Origin: a virus | Lineage: Duplodnaviria; Heunggongvirae; Uroviricota; Caudoviricetes | IMG/VR virus record: IMGVR_UViG_2563366822_000004 | Strand: one strand, 5' to 3' | Length of the DNA: 6,706 bases | Shown here: positions 1-6,706 of the stretch, one piece after another | Position numbering within the stretch: position 1 is the first letter of the stretch | Layout: every line of letters begins with the position of its first letter | Notes under the pieces: generated by a model | Seen by the model: the letters and a program-made list of their open reading frames with translations, nothing else | Databases searched by the model: none | Told to the model about the DNA's origin: nothing | Program-made: the position numbers and the translations under genes

Positions 1-1545
1 TATCTGCTGCTGATACGCCTGCGCTATCCACACCGGACGTGAGAGTCCGGCTTTTTCCCGCTCTGCAGATTCCCTGACCTGCTGGCGGAAAATGTCCTGA
101 TAATCCTCGCCCATCAGCGCCAGCTCTTTCTCATACGTGCTCAGTCCGGCCTCAATGCGCATCACTGATTCCTGAACCTCCTTGAGCCCGTCAATGGCCA
201 TTCTTCCGGCTCCAATCCACTCAGCCCGTGACCAGGCTGATCGCGCCTGATAAAAATCAAAACGTGCCCGTGGCGGACGAATAATCCCCCGAAGAAGTGC
301 CTCTTCCAGCCAGCAGGAAAACATCTGCGTGGCCAGCCGGGCCGCAATAAATTTTCGCCGCCCCATAAAATAGCGCCACGACTCATTGGCGGATGCGCGG
401 GCACTTGAATAACTGACCTTCGAGTAATCACGGGACAACTGTTCGTAGGAAACGCCAAGACCGGCGGCGATATACCGCAGCAGCGCCTGTTCAAGCGCCG
501 AAAATCCATTGTCTGAATCCTGCGCGGTCTGAAGTTTCAGATCATCACCGGGGAAAAGGTGCGGAATTTTGACACCGCCCAGCGTCACGCTATTCGTGTC
601 ATACCAGGTGGAGAACTTATCCAGAATATTAATAAGCGGATTATCCTTCTGCCCCTGCGGCGCACCGGCGATATATTCAAAGGCCTTTTCGGTATCAAGG
701 TCACTTTCAATCGTCGCTGCATACATCGCCTTCACTATGGCCGACTGAAGCTGTGTTGCCTGCAGGGAATCGAGCATCTTCAGCCGTTCCATTACGCTGT
801 AAAACTGATTGGCCCCACGGGTCTGCCCGTCCTCCACCGGCTCGAAAATATGCAGCATGGCCGGACGCCCGGTGGGAAGTTCACGCGGGATCCGTTCCCA
901 TCGTCCACTCCCAGAGAACGGAAAATCATCCTCACAGATATGGTACGCAACGGCACGACCATATCGATCGACCTCCACACCGGCCCGCAGAAAACGGTTC
1001 CCCATACCGTGTCCTGGCGTGTCCACCCGTTTCGGACTCACGGCTTTAAAACGCGTACGAAACAGTTGCGTGCTCTCCGTATCCCAGACCGGCTGCACAA
1101 AGATTTCGCCGTTAAACGCATGAACGCCCACACCTTCACGAATAAATTCCGTAAACGTGCGTTTCTCTTCCACGTCGATCTCGCCAGACATCCCTTCGGC
1201 GTATTCCGACCAGGCCGCCTCCACCTCATCGACAAAACTTTTTGCCGCAGTCTCCCGCATCCCCAGCCAGCGCCAGTTCGGACGGTAGCTGATCAGAAAC
1301 ATATGCCCGACAATATGATCCTTATGCAGGGCCACCGCATTGGCCGCTATCCCGTTATTGCGCACCAGATCATCTGCCCGGGCATTCCCCAGACGCAACG
1401 CAGGCAGCAGGGCTGCATCGGCACTCTGCGCCGGTGGCAACCACTCCGCCATTTGCCCGCCAAATCCTGCGCCGCCCCCGTTGTAGCTGAGACTCTCACG
1501 AAGCGGAACGCCGTTCACATCAATCAGGACAGGCGTTCGTTTCAT
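1..1545 (-). CDS. B: Phage portal protein (lambda gpB-like), partial; C-terminal ~18 aa lie beyond the window start
   Basis: Minus-strand frame is open from the ATG at 1545..1543 to position 1. My translation starts MKRTPVLIDVNGVPLRESLSYNGGGAGFGGQMAEW, matching the lambda gpB N-terminus as I recall it; the window-edge codons read LSRPVWIAQAYQQQI, matching the gpB C-terminal region. Absent from the ORF track only because no stop falls inside the window. Confidence 0.93.
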   Translation of the reverse strand, partial: MKRTPVLIDVNGVPLRESLSYNGGGAGFGGQMAEWLPPAQSADAALLPALRLGNARADDLVRNNGIAANAVALHKDHIVGHMFLISYRPNWRWLGMRETAAKSFVDEVEAAWSEYAEGMSGEIDVEEKRTFTEFIREGVGVHAFNGEIFVQPVWDTESTQLFRTRFKAVSPKRVDTPGHGMGNRFLRAGVEVDRYGRAVAYHICEDDFPFSGSGRWERIPRELPTGRPAMLHIFEPVEDGQTRGANQFYSVMERLKMLDSLQATQLQSAIVKAMYAATIESDLDTEKAFEYIAGAPQGQKDNPLINILDKFSTWYDTNSVTLGGVKIPHLFPGDDLKLQTAQDSDNGFSALEQALLRYIAAGLGVSYEQLSRDYSKVSYSSARASANESWRYFMGRRKFIAARLATQMFSCWLEEALLRGIIRPPRARFDFYQARSAWSRAEWIGAGRMAIDGLKEVQESVMRIEAGLSTYEKELALMGEDYQDIFRQQVRESAEREKAGLSRPVWIAQAYQQQI

Positions 1546-1748
1546 AACCTCACTCCCAGCGGACGACGGCGACGTCGGGTTGTCCCCAGTACCGACTCCG
1601 CATCACTGATCGCCCGGTTAAGCTCATCCAGAGAAGCCACCGTATATTCAATTCTGCGACCATCTTTCTGGACAGACACCACCCGTTTACCGGTTAATAA
1701 ATCAAGGCGCGCCTGACGCAGCGCCTGCAGTTCAGCGACTGTAACCAT
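1542..1748 (-). CDS. W: Head-tail joining / head completion protein (lambda gpW-like), 68 aa
   Basis: ORF-track protein [36 protein letters not shown]... resembles lambda gpW (68 aa, recalled motif LMTGKRVATVQKDGRRVEF). A GGAGGAG Shine-Dalgarno lies just upstream of the ATG at 1748. Its TGA stop overlaps the portal ATG (ATGA junction at 1542-1545), as in lambda W/B. Confidence 0.85.
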   Translation of the reverse strand: MVTVAELQALRQARLDLLTGKRVVSVQKDGRRIEYTVASLDELNRAISDAESVLGTTRRRRRPLGVRL

Positions 1749-3660
1749 TCACTCCTCCGGACAGCTTCGCTGCCAGTTCTTTAAGGGTTGGCCGGGTCGT
1801 CTCTTCTTCCCGGGATTTTGCCAGTACAGCCAGATCAAGCTGCCAGCGTTGCACGGACACACGTAATGCCGCGTAGGCATACACCAGGCAGTCCAGCGCT
1901 TCGTTACGCCGCTTTTTGTTATCCCACAGCAGACGCATCTTTCCTTTTTCCCACTTCTCCACAAGCTCTTCCGCCACCAGTTGCTGCGCCTCTGTCTGCG
2001 AAAAAATCTCCGGATCATCAGGAAAACGGATGGCATACGACGTGGCTTCATCCGCAGGAGTGGGATCGGCTTTCATACGGGCATAGAGAATTTCTTTTGC
2101 GGTGTCCGTCCCCACTTCACACAGATACACGCCCCGCTGATTGCGGGTTTTCGGCATGGTGATCACCGGCTTGCCATAGACAGATGCGCCTTTTACCGGC
2201 AGCACCCGGAAAACACCGTGTTTTTTTGACCTCTGATAGACAATTTCACCATCGATCCCCCCGGTGTCCCAGCAGACACGGGAAATGGTCATTTCGGTTC
2301 CGTCTGCATGGCAGTATTTTTTGTTGATCGCCGCATCCACACGTAACAGCGTCTCTTCCTCATCGGGACGGCCCATAATGATGATTTTATCCACCAGAAA
2401 AGCTTCCTCTCCCGGAGCCCATCCCCAGACATACATCTCAAAACGGTTTCGCTGCGAGTCAATGCCCGCCGTCAGATAAACCACCCGGGAAGGCACCGCA
2501 GCCGTGTAACGCACAACCTTATCCATCAGCACCTGGTGATCGAGTTTTTCGCCCACGGCCTCTTCCCAGGTCTCGCCCAGCGTGGTGTTCACAAAGGTTT
2601 TCAGGCCGTTGGGATCTTTCAGTGCATCCAGCCAGTCATAGACAATCTGTACCCAGGTGGTGAACGGACTGTACGCCGTCCAGATATGGAATGTGATGGA
2701 GCGCGGCGGCGGAATTTCATTATCCGCGGCGCTGAAAAATGTCAGACCGTCACGAGTCCACATGCCCGTGTTTTCACAGATCCACCGCCCGTTACTCTGG
2801 TCAAGCTCAGACTGATGGATCACACAGCCATGATGCTCACAAAGGTAGAAAACACTTTCTGGCTTATTCTTCTCCCACTTAAGACCGAAAGGCGAGGCAT
2901 CATCGCCAAATTTCAGATACTGCTCCTCCCCACAGTGCGGACAGGGCACATAAAAACGCATGAAATGTGCCGACTCGTTAGCGGCTTTTTCGATCTGGCA
3001 GGAGCCTTTGATTTTAGGCGTCGAGCCGCGAATGGATTTTGGCCATACAGAGCCCTCAATACGTTTATCCCCCAGCAGGGTTGGCGAACCCTCTTTTTCA
3101 ACATCCGGTTCGAACGAGGAAAGCTCGTCATAACAAACCACATCCACGGATTTTTCACGGTAGTTTTTTGCTGCCGCTCCCCCCAGACACCAGAAACCCA
3201 CACCGGAGGAAAAACGCTTCAGGGTGAGCGTATTATCGCGGTGTTTTCTTCCGAACCATGGAGCCAGCTCCAGCAATGCAGGAACATCCCTTATCGTTGG
3301 CTCAACATGAGATTTCATAAAATCTTCAGCAGCTGAGTCCGTGGGCTGAAAAAGAAGGCTGTTGCGTGATTTATGCTCAATAAAATAAGCCTCCACTCCC
3401 AGCAACATCTTTGTATAACCAACACGGGCAGATTTAATCAGGTTAACAGTGCGAATCAAATCGTTGCCCATACAGTTCATGATGCCAACCTGAAACGGCA
3501 GTGTTTCCCACCGCCCCGGGGTATAAGACGACTCTTTAGGAAGGTAATAATGTTTATTGGCCCACTGAACTGTCGTCAGTGGAACAGGAATAATGAGAGA
3601 TAAAAGCCCTGTAGCTATCGCACCGGCTGCATTAGCTGCCTTCTGTGCGTCTGAAATCAT
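1732..3660 (-). CDS. A: Terminase large subunit (lambda gpA-like), ~642 aa
   Basis: The track ORF 1732..3702 contains [67 protein letters not shown] and [14 protein letters not shown], colinear with lambda gpA as recalled. Start chosen at the ATG at 3660 (MISDAQ...), which gives a lambda-like length and a ~29-nt overlap with the Nu1 3' end; the in-frame ATG at 3702 is an alternative. Confidence 0.95.
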
Positions 3661-4180
3661 CGATCCACCCGCCCACGTTTTCACCGGCCTTAGCTGCAAC
3701 ATTGGAGGCTTTCGCGATTTCAGTTTTCACCACATCAAGGTGTGATGGTGAAATGTCCGGATATTTACGCTGTAATGTCAACGGCACACGCACAAGTATC
3801 CCCGAAATCTCCTGTGCCACACGTTGCAGAATGAAGGTAAACAGTTCAGTTTCCAGCACCACTCCGTCTTCACGGGCATTTTTCAGTTCCTGCGCATCTG
3901 CCTGCGCTTTTGTGAGCCGGTAGCGTTCATAGTCAATGGTGCCGGGTTGTAAATCTGACTCCGCTGCCGCACGCAAATCGGCCAGTTCTTTGCGGAGCTT
4001 TTCGTTTTCGATATCAGTTTCCCTCTGCGCATACCACTGAATTGCCATGGCAGTATCAAATACAGATTCAATGCCCTTACTGCCTTTGGAGACGCAAGGG
4101 AGCCCCTGAGACTGCCAGCGTTCAATCGTCCGCGGGTCCACGTTAAAAATTTCGGCAAGCCTCTTTTTATTAACCTTCAT
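3632..4180 (-). CDS. nu1: Terminase small subunit (lambda Nu1-like), ~182 aa
   Basis: Translation [36 protein letters not shown]...[48 protein letters not shown] is colinear with lambda Nu1 (MEVNKKQLADIF...[47 protein letters not shown]). The track ORF begins at a TTG at 4204; the ATG at 4180 matches the lambda start and sits ~176 nt from cosN, as in lambda. Confidence 0.93.
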
Positions 4181-4204
4181 AGAACAACCCATTATCAAAT
4201 ACAA

Positions 4205-4355
4205 GGCCCGACATGAAAACGCCAGAAAAAGGCATTTTCGGACACTTTCATGTCGGACATTTATGAATGCAATATTAAAAAAAACAAAAAGTTATATTCG
4301 AGAAGTACCGACACGATTTTCCCTGAAAAATTTTCATAAATAGTGAAAAACCGCG
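4205..4355. promoter_or_regulatory. cosB-like terminase-binding region between cosN and Nu1
   Basis: Perfect 11-bp inverted repeat CCGACATGAAA (4208-4218) / TTTCATGTCGG (4246-4256), 27-bp spacer, at the position where lambda has its inverted R2/R1 sites. A related motif (CGTGTCGG on the minus strand, about 4304-4316) sits where R3 would be. The ~45 nt next to cosN closely match lambda; the R-site region does not. Confidence 0.6.
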
Positions 4356-4367
4356 AGGTCGCCGCCC
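4356..4367 (-). other. cosN: 12-nt cohesive-end sequence identical to lambda (GGGCGGCGACCT on the minus strand)
   Basis: Plus-strand AGGTCGCCGCCC at 4356-4367 is the exact reverse complement of the lambda cohesive end. The flanking minus-strand sequence CTCGCGGTTTTTCACTATTTATGAAAATTTTTCAGGG closely matches the lambda left-end sequence as recalled. Confidence 0.88.
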
Positions 4368-4420
4368 CGTAACCGGTCGGATCGCCGGAAAGGACCCACG
4401 AAATGATAATGATTATCATC
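4368..4420 (-). other. Phage right-end sequence next to cosN, expected to contain cosQ
   Basis: Minus-strand GATGATAATCATTATCATTTCGTGGGTCCTTTCCGGCGATCCGACCGGTTACG is near-identical to the last ~50 nt of the lambda right end as recalled. It includes the near-palindrome ATGATAATGATTATCAT (4402-4418). The exact cosQ boundaries are not resolved here. Confidence 0.5.
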
Positions 4421-4479
4421 TATATAAGGTTTATCACAACATGTGTGTACGCCATCAAACCACGAGAAATAATCAATTA

Positions 4480-4512
4480 TGACGCAGGTATCGTATTAAT
4501 TGATCTGCGTCA
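4480..4512. promoter_or_regulatory. Candidate operator: perfect 8-bp inverted repeat TGACGCAG-N17-CTGCGTCA upstream of the RHH-like gene
   Basis: Read directly from the sequence (4480-4487 and 4505-4512). It lies 60-95 bp upstream of the 4574 start codon in an AT-rich stretch with -10-like hexamers (e.g. GATAAT at 4535-4540). Confidence 0.3.
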
Positions 4513-4573
4513 AATTAACGTAAAAGCAACTTCTGATAATACAAATCAGCAACACTGAATATGGGGAAACATT

Positions 4574-4759
4574 ATGTCATCAAAGAACAGAACGCGCAGA
4601 ACAACAACCCGCAACATCCGATTTCCAAACCAGATGATTGAACAAATTAACATCGCTCTTGATCTGAAAGGTTCAGGAAACTTTTCAGCGTGGGTTATTG
4701 AAGCCTGCAGAAGAAGGCTGTCAACAGAGAGTTCGGGTATGAATTACATAATTAAGTAA
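4574..4759 (+). CDS. Small ribbon-helix-helix-like DNA-binding protein (61 aa), conserved prophage protein of unknown function; possibly DUF3950 / YlcI-like
   Basis: ATG at 4574 with GGGGA Shine-Dalgarno ~6 nt upstream. Sequence MSSKNRTRRTTTRNIRFPNQMIEQINIALDLKGSGNFSAWVIEACRRRL fits the Arc/CopG/MetJ pattern: basic N-terminal tail, a short beta-strand (IRFP), then two helices. Position (next to cos, opposite strand to nu1) matches my recollection of ylcI beside nohD in E. coli DLP12; that assignment is from memory and unverified. Confidence 0.6.
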   Translation: MSSKNRTRRTTTRNIRFPNQMIEQINIALDLKGSGNFSAWVIEACRRRLSTESSGMNYIIK

Positions 4760-4891
4760 CATGGTGTTCACAGAACACGCAGTTACCGGACACATCAGTT
4801 TTCCATTCGCTCCCTGGCAGTACAGGCTTCCCCTCTGACGGGATAGCCTGAAAAAATAACGCAGAAAATTATTTGTTATAATTAATATAAC

Positions 4892-5032
4892 TTACTCAAA
4901 AAAAAGCGACGAGAAAATCAGCATCAACGAACAATAAGCGCCAATACGTGATAACAAATGGCAGCCATATTTATCTGCAGTATAAGCAATGGACAGGATA
5001 ACCACACCAGAAACCGTCAGCATAAAATCCAT
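4892..5032 (-). CDS. Hypothetical small hydrophobic protein (46 aa), speculative
   Basis: Below the ORF-track size threshold; found by manual translation: MDFMLTVSGVVILSIAYTADKYGCHLLSRIGAYCSLMLIFSSLFFE, two hydrophobic stretches. GGGGAAG lies 5 nt upstream of the ATG at 5032. Sits in the AT-rich region, convergent with the 4574-4759 gene. No homology recognised. Confidence 0.22.
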   Translation of the reverse strand: MDFMLTVSGVVILSIAYTADKYGCHLLSRIGAYCSLMLIFSSLFFE

Positions 5033-5382
5033 TTGAACTTCCCCGGACAAAATCGACTCATCTAAAGATTTACAGCTCTTTTTATTATCAATATGTTAAA
5101 AGTAAAATAAACAGATGTTCAATAACACGAATACAAAAACGTGCTGAAATTCAATGAATCCATTTCTGTGTCATCAATTAATAGTGATAAACATCCGGCT
5201 TCTTCCACCATCGCACCGGACAGGCGACTATGAGGGGACAACGCCGCGCTCCGTTAACGCGGTAAACCCCGGTGTGTATCGTTTTTGATTATCCCCGCAC
5301 ACTCGCGCAGAGGAGTCTCCCGGTCGGGCTGCGGTCTCTGTTAATGCGGGGATACGGCGACAATACCGCGCATCAGCAAAAC

Positions 5383-5850
5383 TTATTTCAGGCACTGAGT
5401 GCGGATATATTCCTGCGCCACTTCCAGCTGCTTCTGCATCAGCATCAACCGCTCTCTGAGAGTGAAATAATCCCGTTCAGCGGTGTCTGCCAGTCGGGGG
5501 CCGGTTGCATTATCCACGCCGGAGGTGGTGGGGGCTTCACGCACGGTACCGGGGCAGGTGGCGTTGATCCGCAGGCGCTTACGACCAGCGGCAACGTCAG
5601 CGCGCAGAGTTTCATTTTCAGCTCTCGCATCGGCTAATTCCCTCGAGTATCTGGCATCAAGTGCAGCAACATCACGCTGGCGCTGCTGCATATCAGTAAT
5701 GGTTGCATTTGCCTGCTCCAGCTCACTGACTTTTTTATCGCGCTGCTCTTTGTAGGTTATGGCGTTATCACGGTAATGATTCAGCCCCAGACTAAGCGCA
5801 CCACAGGCCACCAGCAGGGCAATGATGACCACGCACAGTACGCGGTTCAT
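5383..5850 (-). CDS. Rz: Spanin, inner-membrane subunit (i-spanin, lambda Rz-like), 155 aa
   Basis: MNRVLCVVIIALLVACGALSLGLNHYRDNAITYKEQRDKK...DMQQRQRDVAALDARYSRELADARAEN...VAAGRKRLRI...TTSGVDNATGPRLADTAERDYFTLRERL is colinear with lambda Rz as recalled (AVNHYRDNAITYKAQRDKN...RQRDVAALDAKYTKELADAKAEN...SPRLADTAERDYFTLRERL). N-terminal transmembrane segment present. Confidence 0.93.
   Translation of the reverse strand: MNRVLCVVIIALLVACGALSLGLNHYRDNAITYKEQRDKKVSELEQANATITDMQQRQRDVAALDARYSRELADARAENETLRADVAAGRKRLRINATCPGTVREAPTTSGVDNATGPRLADTAERDYFTLRERLMLMQKQLEVAQEYIRTQCLK
5445..5630 (-). CDS. Rz1: Spanin, outer-membrane lipoprotein subunit (o-spanin, lambda Rz1-like), 61 aa, embedded in the +1 frame of Rz
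   Basis: MRELKMKLCALTLPLVVSACGSTPPAPVPCVKPPPPPAWIMQPAPDWQTPLNGIIS has a lipobox (VSAC) and the proline-rich stretch CVKPPPPPAWIMQP..DWQTPLNGIIS, near-identical to lambda Rz1 as recalled. Nested entirely within Rz, as in lambda. Confidence 0.9.
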   Translation of the reverse strand: MRELKMKLCALTLPLVVSACGSTPPAPVPCVKPPPPPAWIMQPAPDWQTPLNGIISLSESG

Positions 5851-5851
5851 T

Positions 5852-5950
5852 TCACCACCAGCGTATCTGACCGATGAAATAACCGGAGGCCATAATCACA
5901 AACACCAGCCAGATAAGAATGAACTTCCAGGTGGATAATTTTTCAGCCAT
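5852..5950 (-). CDS. Hypothetical small transmembrane protein (32 aa) immediately upstream of Rz, speculative
   Basis: Manual translation: MAEKLSTWKFILIWLVFVIMASGYFIGQIRWW, one hydrophobic helix. GGGAG lies ~9 nt upstream of the ATG at 5950. Its TGA stop (5854-5852) is one nucleotide from the Rz ATG (5850), i.e. a translational-coupling geometry. Occupies a ~300-bp R-Rz spacer that lambda lacks. Confidence 0.3.
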   Translation of the reverse strand: MAEKLSTWKFILIWLVFVIMASGYFIGQIRWW

Positions 5951-6025
5951 CACTCGAATCTCCCGAATCAGTTTGCTAAAATCAAACACACTTTCTCCTT
6001 TGACTTTTCCAGAGTCAGGAAACAC

Positions 6026-6058
6026 AAAACCCCGCTTGCAGCCAACAAACGGGGTTTT
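6026..6058 (+). terminator. Terminator-like hairpin (9-bp stem AAAACCCCG / CGGGGTTTT, 15-nt loop) followed by a T-rich tract
   Basis: Read from the sequence: stem arms at 6026-6034 and 6050-6058, then TTTTTACTTTTATT on the plus strand. The minus strand has a weaker U-tract (UUUUGUGUUU). The loop is long for a canonical intrinsic terminator. Confidence 0.3.
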
Positions 6059-6148
6059 TACTTTTATTCACTTACATTTTGCCAGTTCGCAGGATTTCGT
6101 GTTATCCGTCCGCCTTGGCCAACGTCATTGATTAGCAAAATATTCTGC

Positions 6149-6496
6149 TTATCTGTCGATTCCCCAGCACGCCAGCGCGCTCTCCTGGTCACGACGGGAT
6201 ACCTGACCGTAACAGTTATTTGAGCGAATACGGCAGTCTCTGCCACCGTCCTTAATCCACCAGCGAATCGCCTCACACGCTCCCCTGCGATCACCTGCAT
6301 TAATTCGTTTATAAAACGTCGACGGAAAACACTTACCGGGGCCAATGTTGTACGGACAGAATGACGCGATCCCCGCTTTCTGGGGTTCACTCAATGGCAC
6401 TCTGATGTTTTTCTCCACCCATGCCAGCGCCTTATCACGCTCAATGGCGTTAACCCGGTCGCATTTTTCCTTCGACAACTTCATGCCCGGAACGAC
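6149..6496 (-). pseudogene. R: Phage endolysin (lysozyme family), 3' fragment; N-terminal ~55-60 residues removed by the IS insertion
   Basis: Minus-strand translation ...VVPGMKLSKEKCDRVNAIERDKALAWVEKNIRVPLSEPQKAGIASFCPYNIGPGKCFPSTFYKRINAGDRRGACEAIRWWIKDGGRDCRIRSNNCYGQVSRRDQESALACWGIDR matches the C-terminal two-thirds of lambdoid lysozyme-type endolysins (phage 21 R-like). Upstream of codon V at 6496 the frame runs into IS sequence and a stop at 6529-6527; no N-terminal signal-anchor region or catalytic Glu region is present in the window. Confidence 0.85.
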
Positions 6497-6706
6497 TGAA
6501 GTGGTCAACAAAAACTGGCCACCGAGTTAGAGTTTTTCCAGTATCGATTTTCCGATTCGTTTGGGGGTAATCCACCGTTATATTCGTGCGGTCTTAGTGC
6601 GCTGTAATATCCAACGATATAGTCCGTTATGGCGTGAGCTGCCTCGCTGAAGCTTACGTAACCCACCACCGGCATCCATTCGTTCTTCAGACTCCTGAAG
6701 AAGCGT
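6497..6706 (-). mobile_element. IS3-family insertion sequence, terminal ~210 bp (IS911-like right end); element continues beyond the window end
   Basis: The sequence starts with TGAAGTGGTCAACAAAAACTGGCCACC at 6497 (TG...CA-type IS3-family terminus) exactly where endolysin homology ends. The minus strand encodes a transposase C-terminus that ends inside this terminal repeat, as is typical of IS3-family orfB. IS911 identity is from memory of the terminal sequence, not a search. Confidence 0.8.
6505..6706 (-). CDS. IS3-family transposase OrfB (DDE integrase), C-terminal 66 aa, partial
   Basis: Minus-strand translation RFFRSLKNEWMPVVGYVSFSEAAHAITDYIVGYYSALRPHEYNGGLPPNESENRYWKNSNSVASFC ending at the TGA at 6507..6505. 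The FFxSLK...E and RPHxxNGGL(S/P)P motifs are the conserved C-terminal signature of IS3-family OrfB. Confidence 0.85.
   Translation of the reverse strand, partial: RFFRSLKNEWMPVVGYVSFSEAAHAITDYIVGYYSALRPHEYNGGLPPNESENRYWKNSNSVASFC

Follow-up and report, generated by a model that had tools for sequence, protein, structure and literature searches.

The stretch of DNA analysed here (the window, 6,706 nucleotides) comes from a virus of the Caudoviricetes, IMG/VR virus record IMGVR_UViG_2563366822_000004. It is the late region of a lambdoid prophage, transcribed on the minus strand, and this work concerns the interval 4760-5382, located between the spanin gene Rz and the cos site. On balance we read this interval as a composite of two independent parts: a structured RNA of the late transcript next to Rz (positions 5192-5375), and a moron, i.e. 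a short inserted module (positions 4760-5171), which carries an open reading frame (ORF) of 46 codons, here called ORF46. The RNA element is very probably a real conserved RNA structure, whose base pairing is kept by compensatory substitutions in phages including lambda itself. ORF46 is probably a real, although weakly constrained, gene for a small membrane protein. The positions of all features are collected in Table 1.

Composition of the interval between Rz and cos

The original prediction, made from the sequence of the window, had described the interval as an AT-rich cargo region with a small hydrophobic ORF, possibly a small membrane protein or a type I toxin, and a largely non-coding remainder which could encode a small RNA (sRNA). 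The AT-rich character holds for positions 4760-5166 (37% GC) but not for positions 5192-5375, where the GC content is 60%, to be compared with 56% in Rz, 51% in the terminase genes and 30% in the region upstream of ORF46. Used alone as a query, the interval matches 4,145 of 5,426 complete Escherichia coli genomes, about 730 of them over the full length; the matches in the other genomes are restricted to positions 428-623 of the query, which correspond to window positions 5187-5382. In the phage collection PPyecE_EH1910 is the sole record spanning the whole interval and a second record exceeds 80%, while hundreds of Shiga toxin (Stx), lambda-like and Salmonella phages match the GC-rich end only.

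Two statements on the spacing and gene content of this region were borne out. The distance from Rz to cos is short, about 1 kb as opposed to about 2.07 kb in lambda, and there is no homologue of lambda bor, since tblastn with BorD was negative in the window and no ORF of the right size lies between Rz and cos. Besides ORF46, no ORF of at least 60 amino acids was found between ynfO and Rz.

A probable conserved RNA structure downstream of Rz

In the RNAalifold prediction the element has three parts: a long, irregular hairpin domain at the 5' end, which a long-range stem of 7 bp closes, then a middle hairpin that is variable, and finally a hairpin at the 3' end. Its copies have sharp ends (from 'UGCGC...' to '...GGAAGAAAC.GGA') and variable flanks. 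Covariation was evaluated with a model of 41 pairs in eight helices on two alignments, one of 43 representatives (A3) and one of 30 broader representatives (A6) including lambda, the Salmonella type, Raoultella and a third type. In alignment A3 97.5% of cells were paired, against 33-64% when the 3' partners were slid, and 11 pairs were changed on both sides where 3.3 were expected; none of 500 shuffles reached any of five measures. In alignment A6 94.5% of cells were paired, 16 pairs were changed on both sides (7.7±1.7 expected) and such changes occurred in 53 cells (11.9 expected), again with none of 500 shuffles reaching any measure. The comparative alignment suggested in the original prediction as a check on RNA structure thus gives covariation beyond both the shuffled and the slid controls in 5192-5375.

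Compensatory changes are found in five of the eight helices, including the long-range pairs of P1 and P2, whose partners are about 60-90 nt apart. Helices 1-4 are 95-99% paired across the alignments; where only one side has changed, the result is nearly always a G·U wobble, and the double changes include CG to GC in lambda and K-12 and CG to AU in the Salmonella type. In the terminal hairpin all six pairs (6/6) are changed on both sides. When this hairpin was folded singly in 98 distinct copies, a 15-nt loop, GCGRKGGUGGAAGAA, was seen to be closed by at least six stem sequences, among them GUCCGGU/ACCGGAC, GUCCUGU/ACAGGAC and CUCGAU/AUCGAG. The cells contain 158 G·U pairs and 16 A·C pairs, and this excess identifies the late-transcript strand as the one that folds. 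A covariance model built from A6 (R1) recognises the window copy over its full length with 206 bits (E 1e-54), on the minus strand only.

Some points weigh against a conserved RNA structure. The stability of the fold relative to shuffled sequences is not significant (z = -1.24; antisense strand, +0.15), the copies are all from enterobacterial phages that are close relatives, and part of the conservation seen arises by construction, because the retrieval patterns fix some of the columns.

The sequence might instead be conserved at the DNA level, as a recombination linker, a dyad protein-binding site or a single-stranded DNA hairpin. The element sits exactly at a mosaic boundary, with different modules joined on both sides, G·T is the best-tolerated mismatch in DNA hairpins too, and the fold is, as just said, thermodynamically unexceptional. 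However, pairing is kept by compensatory changes, including those of the long-range P1 and P2 stems, which a duplex protein-binding site does not need and which are needless for a pure recombination linker, and the proportion of G·U to A·C points to one single strand, the one present in the late transcript. We therefore regard conservation as DNA as quite unlikely and an RNA structure as the better account of the element.

It is extremely improbable that the element encodes a small protein, as is annotated in phage VT2-Sakai, where orf48 (NC_000902 1944-2204, NP_050547.1, 86 aa, 'Rz-like spanin') runs across it from a GTG start. In the window, too, a GTG ORF of 55 aa is present at 5228-5395. 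The frame, however, switches partway between VT2-Sakai and the window, variants differ by indels of 1-2 nt, there is no ATG, the ORF overlaps Rz and no family match was obtained; with its frame not conserved, orf48 is probably a mis-annotation. Two other identities were considered and dropped: ybcW was rejected on comparison, and a miniature inverted-repeat transposable element does not fit, as inspection by eye revealed no terminal inverted repeats and the position never varies.

Distribution and genomic context of the element

A degenerate pattern derived from the invariant blocks retrieved the element from more than 120 IMG/VR viral contigs and from genomes of E. coli, E. albertii, Escherichia sp. 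and Raoultella; a second pattern added the Salmonella-type variants and the third variant type. The lambda copy (137 bits) occupies about 46,865-47,034, where nothing is annotated between bor and lambdap78; that of the K-12 prophage DLP12 (142 bits) lies at MG1655 579,006-579,176, between borD and ybcV. At both places the covariance model again matches one strand only.

In 139/139 copies Rz is found upstream and the terminase genes downstream, both co-oriented with the element. The immediate neighbours vary: upstream they are Rz, bor (on the opposite strand), a 74-aa ORF or rha, and downstream ybcV, ynfO, Nu1/TerL or ORF46. This constant bracket of Rz and terminase with changing neighbours inside it makes the element a fixed landmark of the lambdoid late operon, and one of its most conserved features, on both sides of which morons gather.

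Large ColV/iss-type plasmids have a degenerate copy (NZ_CP010149.1 2934-3104, 86.5 bits), in which only about 95 nt of the 5' domain are well conserved. There it adjoins iss, the bor homologue, and remnants of Rz/Rz1, which betrays that the iss region is of lambdoid origin. Two copies in the same orientation (5054-5236 and 6004-6186), about 950 bp apart, were found on a single viral contig, an arrangement consistent with the insertion of a moron by recombination between element copies. Copies scoring 157-204 bits, as high as those of E. coli phages, also occur on short contigs or on scaffolds of metagenome-assembled genomes labelled Nanosynbacter, Pseudomonas yangonensis, Thiomicrorhabdus and 'Proteobacteria bacterium'; these most likely reflect contamination or mis-binning and not true hosts.

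Possible role of the element and comparison with known RNAs

The late operon of lambdoid phages is a Q-dependent transcript, and the element is presumably transcribed within it. No promoter or terminator of its own was found in the scan, and the terminal hairpin is no intrinsic terminator, as no run of U follows it and the sequence on its 3' side is variable. Being inside the late transcript, without promoter or terminator, and at the boundary between lysis and morphogenesis genes, the element is most economically read as a cis-acting mRNA element, which would act at this boundary of the Q-dependent transcript. It may provide punctuation for processing or stability, for example as an RNase III or RNase E site whose leftover hairpin would shield the flanking mRNA; alternatively, it may be a platform for the binding of a protein or of Hfq through the purine-rich invariant GGUGGAAGAA loop. 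Any one specific function is doubtful. We suggest tentatively that the element founds an undescribed family of structured RNAs, fixed in lambda-like late operons such as those of lambda and DLP12, which might act in cis via processing, stabilisation or the recruitment of a factor by the GGUGGAAGAA loop.

None of the 4,227 families of Rfam 15 matches within 4760-5382 at E <= 1, and no description of the element was found in the openly accessible literature on a borD/ybcV sRNA, on a lambdoid spanin/terminase non-coding RNA or on lambda ribosome profiling.

Among known structures, the RNase III hairpins of phages (the T7 R-sites, the lambda N-leader and sib) resemble the element in being long irregular hairpins with internal loops located between transcript blocks. 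They have no sequence relation to it, and the element adds two hairpins and a conserved loop motif which RNase III does not need; an RNase III processing hairpin is a plausible mechanistic analogue of the 5' domain. The put RNAs of HK022 are cis-acting antitermination RNAs just downstream of the early promoters, composed of two stem-loops with about 70 nt in total. Like the proposed cis-acting element they are structured RNAs within a lambdoid operon, with a conserved structure, but they share no sequence or structural similarity with it, and the late operon in which the element lies already uses Q.

A third group is formed by the Hfq-binding sRNAs and anti-sRNAs of prophages (AsxR, AgvB, the EcOnc set, PasA-D, STnc100, Esr41), which are likewise non-coding and placed at conserved positions in lambdoid prophages, and the loop of the element contains an A-R-N-like purine stretch (GAAGAAA). 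Known prophage sRNAs measure 50-240 nt, and for some of them their own 5' ends or terminators have been reported. The element differs in lying downstream of Rz, with about 183 nt and no promoter or terminator of its own seen. AsxR and AgvB map 3' of pR' at the stx/moron site (PMC4104026), and PasA, C and D adjoin the holin-lysozyme operon (bioRxiv 10.64898/2026.05.13.724894); these five are not the element, since they are on the side of the lysis cassette towards pR' and the holin gene. Nor is it PasB, which in E2348/69 is located between the tail genes I and J (PMC8550237, Table S6) and whose probe is absent from the window. The Rfam models of AsxR, AgvB, STnc100 and Esr41 gave no match in the window.

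In the part of the EcOnc table that was covered, obtained by Hfq crosslinking and analysis of cDNA (Hfq-CRAC) in enterohaemorrhagic E. coli (Sakai), no peak is given near the expected Sp5 position, a point against an RNA at this site; it is uninformative, as the late genes are silent in uninduced lysogens. The earlier idea that the non-coding remainder could encode an sRNA was thus right in part: a structured RNA is present, but it lies in the GC-rich third and not in the cargo, and with neither promoter nor terminator of its own there is nothing to mark it as a free-standing sRNA.

The AT-rich module as a moron

In phages without the module no more than about 40 nt separate the end of the RNA element ('...GGAAGAAACCGGGATGTT.AT...ATTGATG') from the 3' end of ynfO. 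In the window about 420 extra bases follow ATTGATG, with the upstream junction at 5171/5172, and at or before position 4708, within the ynfO 3' end, homology to the module-less phages is regained. As the recombination joint of the moron is inside ynfO, the C-terminal codons of this gene, about 17 of them, differ from phage to phage. An insertion between sequences which are adjacent in related phages, combined with a composition unlike that of the neighbours, is the anatomy of a moron. It would have landed just 3' of the RNA element, at a junction which holds ybcV-ybcW in lambda and DLP12 and nothing in others.

Morons were defined by Juhala and Hendrix, with lambda bor and lom and HK97 gp15 as examples; HK97 gp15 is reportedly a small predicted inner-membrane protein which excludes superinfecting phage. 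The module resembles them as a short AT-rich insert between normally adjacent genes, with one small gene co-oriented with the late genes and possibly a promoter of its own. It differs in that bor, lom and HK97 gp15 have no sequence similarity to ORF46 and in that no canonical promoter or terminator was found for ORF46. The AT-rich part was found in 734 of the 5,426 complete E. coli genomes, with 98.5-100% identity in all but one, and rare diverged lineages of the module exist besides these near-identical copies.

Upstream of ORF46, a block of 35 nt (5078-5112) is identical between lineages which are otherwise only about 77% identical in this region. The AT-rich promoter-like sequence claimed here stands half-way: the candidate TTGAAC-18-TAACAT scores 8/12, below the threshold of the scan, but it sits at this conserved block. 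The scan also listed a plus-strand site, TTTACA-17-TATGTT, overlapping the same block. Both are candidate promoters only by their sequence; the plus-strand one, if active, would direct transcription antisense to both the RNA element and Rz.

Evidence for ORF46 as a gene

The 46-codon ATG ORF has exactly the translation originally given, and the Shine-Dalgarno sequence GGGGAAG was confirmed at 5038-5044 (minus strand), 8 nt before the ATG; its GGGGAA is retained in a lineage with 79% identity. ORF46 is no new call, as PGAP/RefSeq already lists WP_000347013.1 as 'hypothetical protein', and the exact protein is found on at least 1,000 contigs, always unnamed. The frame is open in the SHP24 lineage (module 79% identical, 45 aa) and in the P0007 lineage (90% identical).

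In two deep comparisons the ratio of non-synonymous to synonymous differences (pN/pS) of ORF46 was 0.34-0.38, versus 0.6-0.8 in the other two frames of the same strand and 0.62-1.65 in the frames of the reverse strand. The single-pair dN/dS was suggestive but not significant, and under random mutation the frame stays open in 48% of cases. Because single-pair dN/dS was not significant, substitution events were pooled over 157 ORF46 copies from viral and metagenome collections, which represent 16 haplotypes and about four lineages and include two extra diverged metagenomic alleles. ORF46 is intact in 157/157 copies. Codons 1-44 have undergone 36 distinct substitutions, 17 synonymous, 19 non-synonymous and none creating a stop, against a neutral expectation, at the same mix of transitions and transversions, of 11.0, 24.2 and 0.8, respectively (P = 0.012 for at least 17 synonymous events; 0.006 including the absence of stops). 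Of the six frames, that of ORF46 is the richest in synonymous events and the only one without a stop-creating event. At the codon level as well, then, the proposed comparative alignment came out in favour, with a synonymous excess and a frame kept open.

The Shine-Dalgarno sequence and the start codon are kept across lineages, one allele having GTG for ATG. The C-terminal half (LLSRIGAYC[SA][LV][MI]LIFSSLFF) is the best-conserved part of the protein. The only indels among the 157 copies are +1 slips in the slippage-prone T8 tract at the 3' end, which occur in several lineages and change the last residues only (LFFE*, LFF*, LFFFLSKLY*).

The rival explanation is that ORF46 is a chance ORF and that the module is non-coding cargo, i.e. 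promoter or regulatory DNA, a non-coding RNA on either strand, or decaying recombination junk. Several results weigh on this side. When sequences of equal size and composition were generated at random, 28% (mononucleotide shuffle) to 41% (first-order Markov) of them contained an ATG ORF of 46 aa or more, and a hydrophobic translation is weak evidence, as a T-rich sense strand yields it by default. Constraint on ORF46 is weak (omega about 0.5), and the 36 events are dominated by two deep lineages. In the deepest lineage ORF46 is 82% identical versus 77% upstream and 63% (with indels) downstream, so that it is barely better conserved than the non-coding upstream region, and the best-conserved piece of the module is the 35-nt non-coding block, overlapped by the plus-strand promoter-like site with its potential antisense transcript.

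ORF46 is moreover an orphan. No Pfam, NCBIfam, PHROG or PADLOC family matches it, a word-indexed search of 5.8 billion proteins returned near-identical E. coli copies only, and an exhaustive HMMER search of 1.84 billion representative proteins gave no homologue outside E. coli prophages. Long multi-stretch protein matches were discarded as hydrophobic noise. For expression, the scan gave no canonical promoter or terminator for ORF46, the weak hairpin at 4764-4778 being alone after the ORF, and no published transcription or translation was found in the openly accessible literature with the protein accession or the peptide string. The thermodynamic z-score of the ORF46 mRNA was not significant.

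Against a chance ORF stand the synonymous excess and the lack of stop-creating events, in the ORF46 frame only, the integrity of all copies, and the retention of start and Shine-Dalgarno sequence across lineages including one with a swap of start codon; the antisense frames contain stops and are not conserved. We hold a chance ORF in non-coding cargo to be on the unlikely side, and ORF46 to be probably a gene under weak constraint.

Predicted product of ORF46 and the type I toxin question

AlphaFold2 predicts for ORF46 two helices, residues 2-22 and 24-44, with moderate confidence (predicted local distance difference test, pLDDT, 72). The grand average of hydropathy (GRAVY) is 1.11, and there are two hydrophobic segments with positive charges in the loop between the helices and acidic residues at both termini. 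The product is probably a 46-residue hairpin in the inner membrane, whose D2 and E46 termini would be periplasmic and whose K21/H25/R29 loop would be cytoplasmic. Read-through within the late transcript would provide the mRNA for its translation, and the conserved AT-rich promoter-like block might in addition allow expression in the lysogen. To judge from other small membrane proteins encoded by morons, its role would most likely be an accessory one at the membrane, for example the exclusion of superinfecting phage or the modulation of lysis. A cargo region with a small membrane protein, as originally proposed, is therefore a fair description of 4760-5171, an AT-rich insert with a modest coding signature and a predicted two-helix hairpin, but not of the GC-rich third, which is not cargo.

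The suggestion of a type I toxin found no support beyond size and hydrophobicity. A type I toxin would be restrained by a small RNA, either antisense or encoded nearby, and ORF46 shares with the members of this group (Hok/Gef, Ldr, TisB, Ibs, ShoB, ZorO, DinQ) that it is a hydrophobic peptide of less than 60 aa on a mobile element. Small size, hydrophobicity, location on a prophage and AT-richness are generic resemblances only, and being a small hydrophobic peptide of this length is weak evidence given the T-rich sequence. If the candidate promoter is real, a 5' untranslated region of about 50-60 nt would also agree with such a toxin. On the other side, three variants of ORF46 matched no Pfam toxin family even at E <= 10, and no Rfam antitoxin sRNA was detected anywhere in the window at E <= 1. 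Complementary segments are limited to chance matches of 12-17 nt, no promoter-terminator pair in cis-antisense lies over ORF46, and the locus shows no tandem duplication. Unlike these toxins ORF46 belongs to no family, has no detectable antitoxin RNA and has two short predicted helices, most type I toxins being known for a single transmembrane helix. We consider it very unlikely that ORF46 is a toxin of this type.

Other features of the window

Table 1. Positions of the elements and genes in the window
Feature	Position	Strand	Remarks
Portal gene	1-1545		
gpW	1542-1748		
Large terminase	1732-3702		
Nu1	3632-4204		
cos	about 4340-4400		
ynfO/ylcI (DUF3950)	4574-4759	+	Convergent with ORF46; RefSeq annotation
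AT-rich inserted module (moron)	4760-5171	-	37% GC; insert of ~420 bp
ORF46 (MDFMLTVSGVVILSIAYTADKYGCHLLSRIGAYCSLMLIFSSLFFE)	4892-5032	-	RefSeq WP_000347013.1, hypothetical protein
T8 tract at ORF46 3' end (A8 on plus strand)	4898-4905	-	Slippage-prone
Plus-strand promoter-like site TTTACA-17-TATGTT	5069-5097	+	Candidate from promoter scan; overlaps conserved 35-nt block
Promoter-like region	5078-5122	-	-10 candidate TAACAT 5093-5098; -35 candidate TTGAAC 5117-5122; 18-nt spacer
Conserved, very probably structured RNA	5192-5375	-	~183 nt, 60% GC; begins 8 nt after Rz stop codon
RNA terminal (3') hairpin UCCGG[UGCGAUGGUGGAAGAAG]CCGGA	5194-5220	-	Conserved loop motif GYGRKGGUGGAAGAA, covarying stem
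RNA 5' domain, long irregular hairpin	5276-5366	-	P1 GUAUUGU/ACGAUAC; P2 AUCCCCGCA/UGCGGGGAU plus extensions; P3 CGCAG/CUGCG; P4 CCC/GGG
Rz (i-spanin gene)	5383-5850	-	Last lysis gene upstream of RNA element
Rz1	5445-5630		Embedded in Rz
Small single-transmembrane ORF (MAEKLSTWKFILIWLVFVIMASGYFIGQIRWW)	5852-5950 (listed ORF 5852-6025)	-	Directly upstream of Rz
Endolysin gene	6149-6511	-	
ORF fragment	6505-6675	-	

The part of the window from 4200 to 5500 is present in about 263 complete E. coli genomes, O104:H4 strains among them, with about 98.5-99% identity. The product of ynfO matches Pfam PF13132 (E 9e-19) and the NCBIfam model YlcI_YnfO_N, and YnfO/YlcI, judged by eye, may have a ribbon-helix-helix DNA-binding fold. 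It shows a weak PHROG match to HicB-like antitoxins (phrog_497, E 0.012), and its gene adjoins cos. An imperfect inverted repeat of 27 nt (78% complementary) is located at 4203-4261, just upstream of the start of Nu1, in the cosB region.

The small ORF at 5852-5950 matches phrog_6632 (E 5e-20, function not assigned) and carries the annotation hypothetical in related prophages; possibly it is a component of the lysis cassette that has gone unrecognised. The endolysin gene is without its N-terminal part when compared to the 177-aa lysozyme of related prophages, and abuts the ORF fragment at 6505-6675. This fragment presumably belongs to the C-terminus of an IS3-family transposase, an impression only. 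If it is an insertion sequence element, the lysis cassette is disrupted and the prophage probably defective.

Significance

Taken alone, ORF46 is a routine orphan moron gene, and the RNA element is the more notable of the two parts of the interval. If real, ORF46 adds one small prophage membrane protein, which about 14% of the complete E. coli genomes carry, O104:H4 and O157:H7 among them. The interval has matches, which outside the full-length ones cover the element only, in more than three quarters of the complete E. coli genomes, often in multiple copies, and the element is present also in Stx phages, in Salmonella ES18-type phages, beside iss on ColV-type plasmids and in lambda, the phage that has been studied best. 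It marks the exact junction at which morons are inserted (bor/iss, rha, ybcV-ybcW, ORF46), and it may thus bear both on the handling of late mRNA and on the acquisition of virulence-associated cargo.

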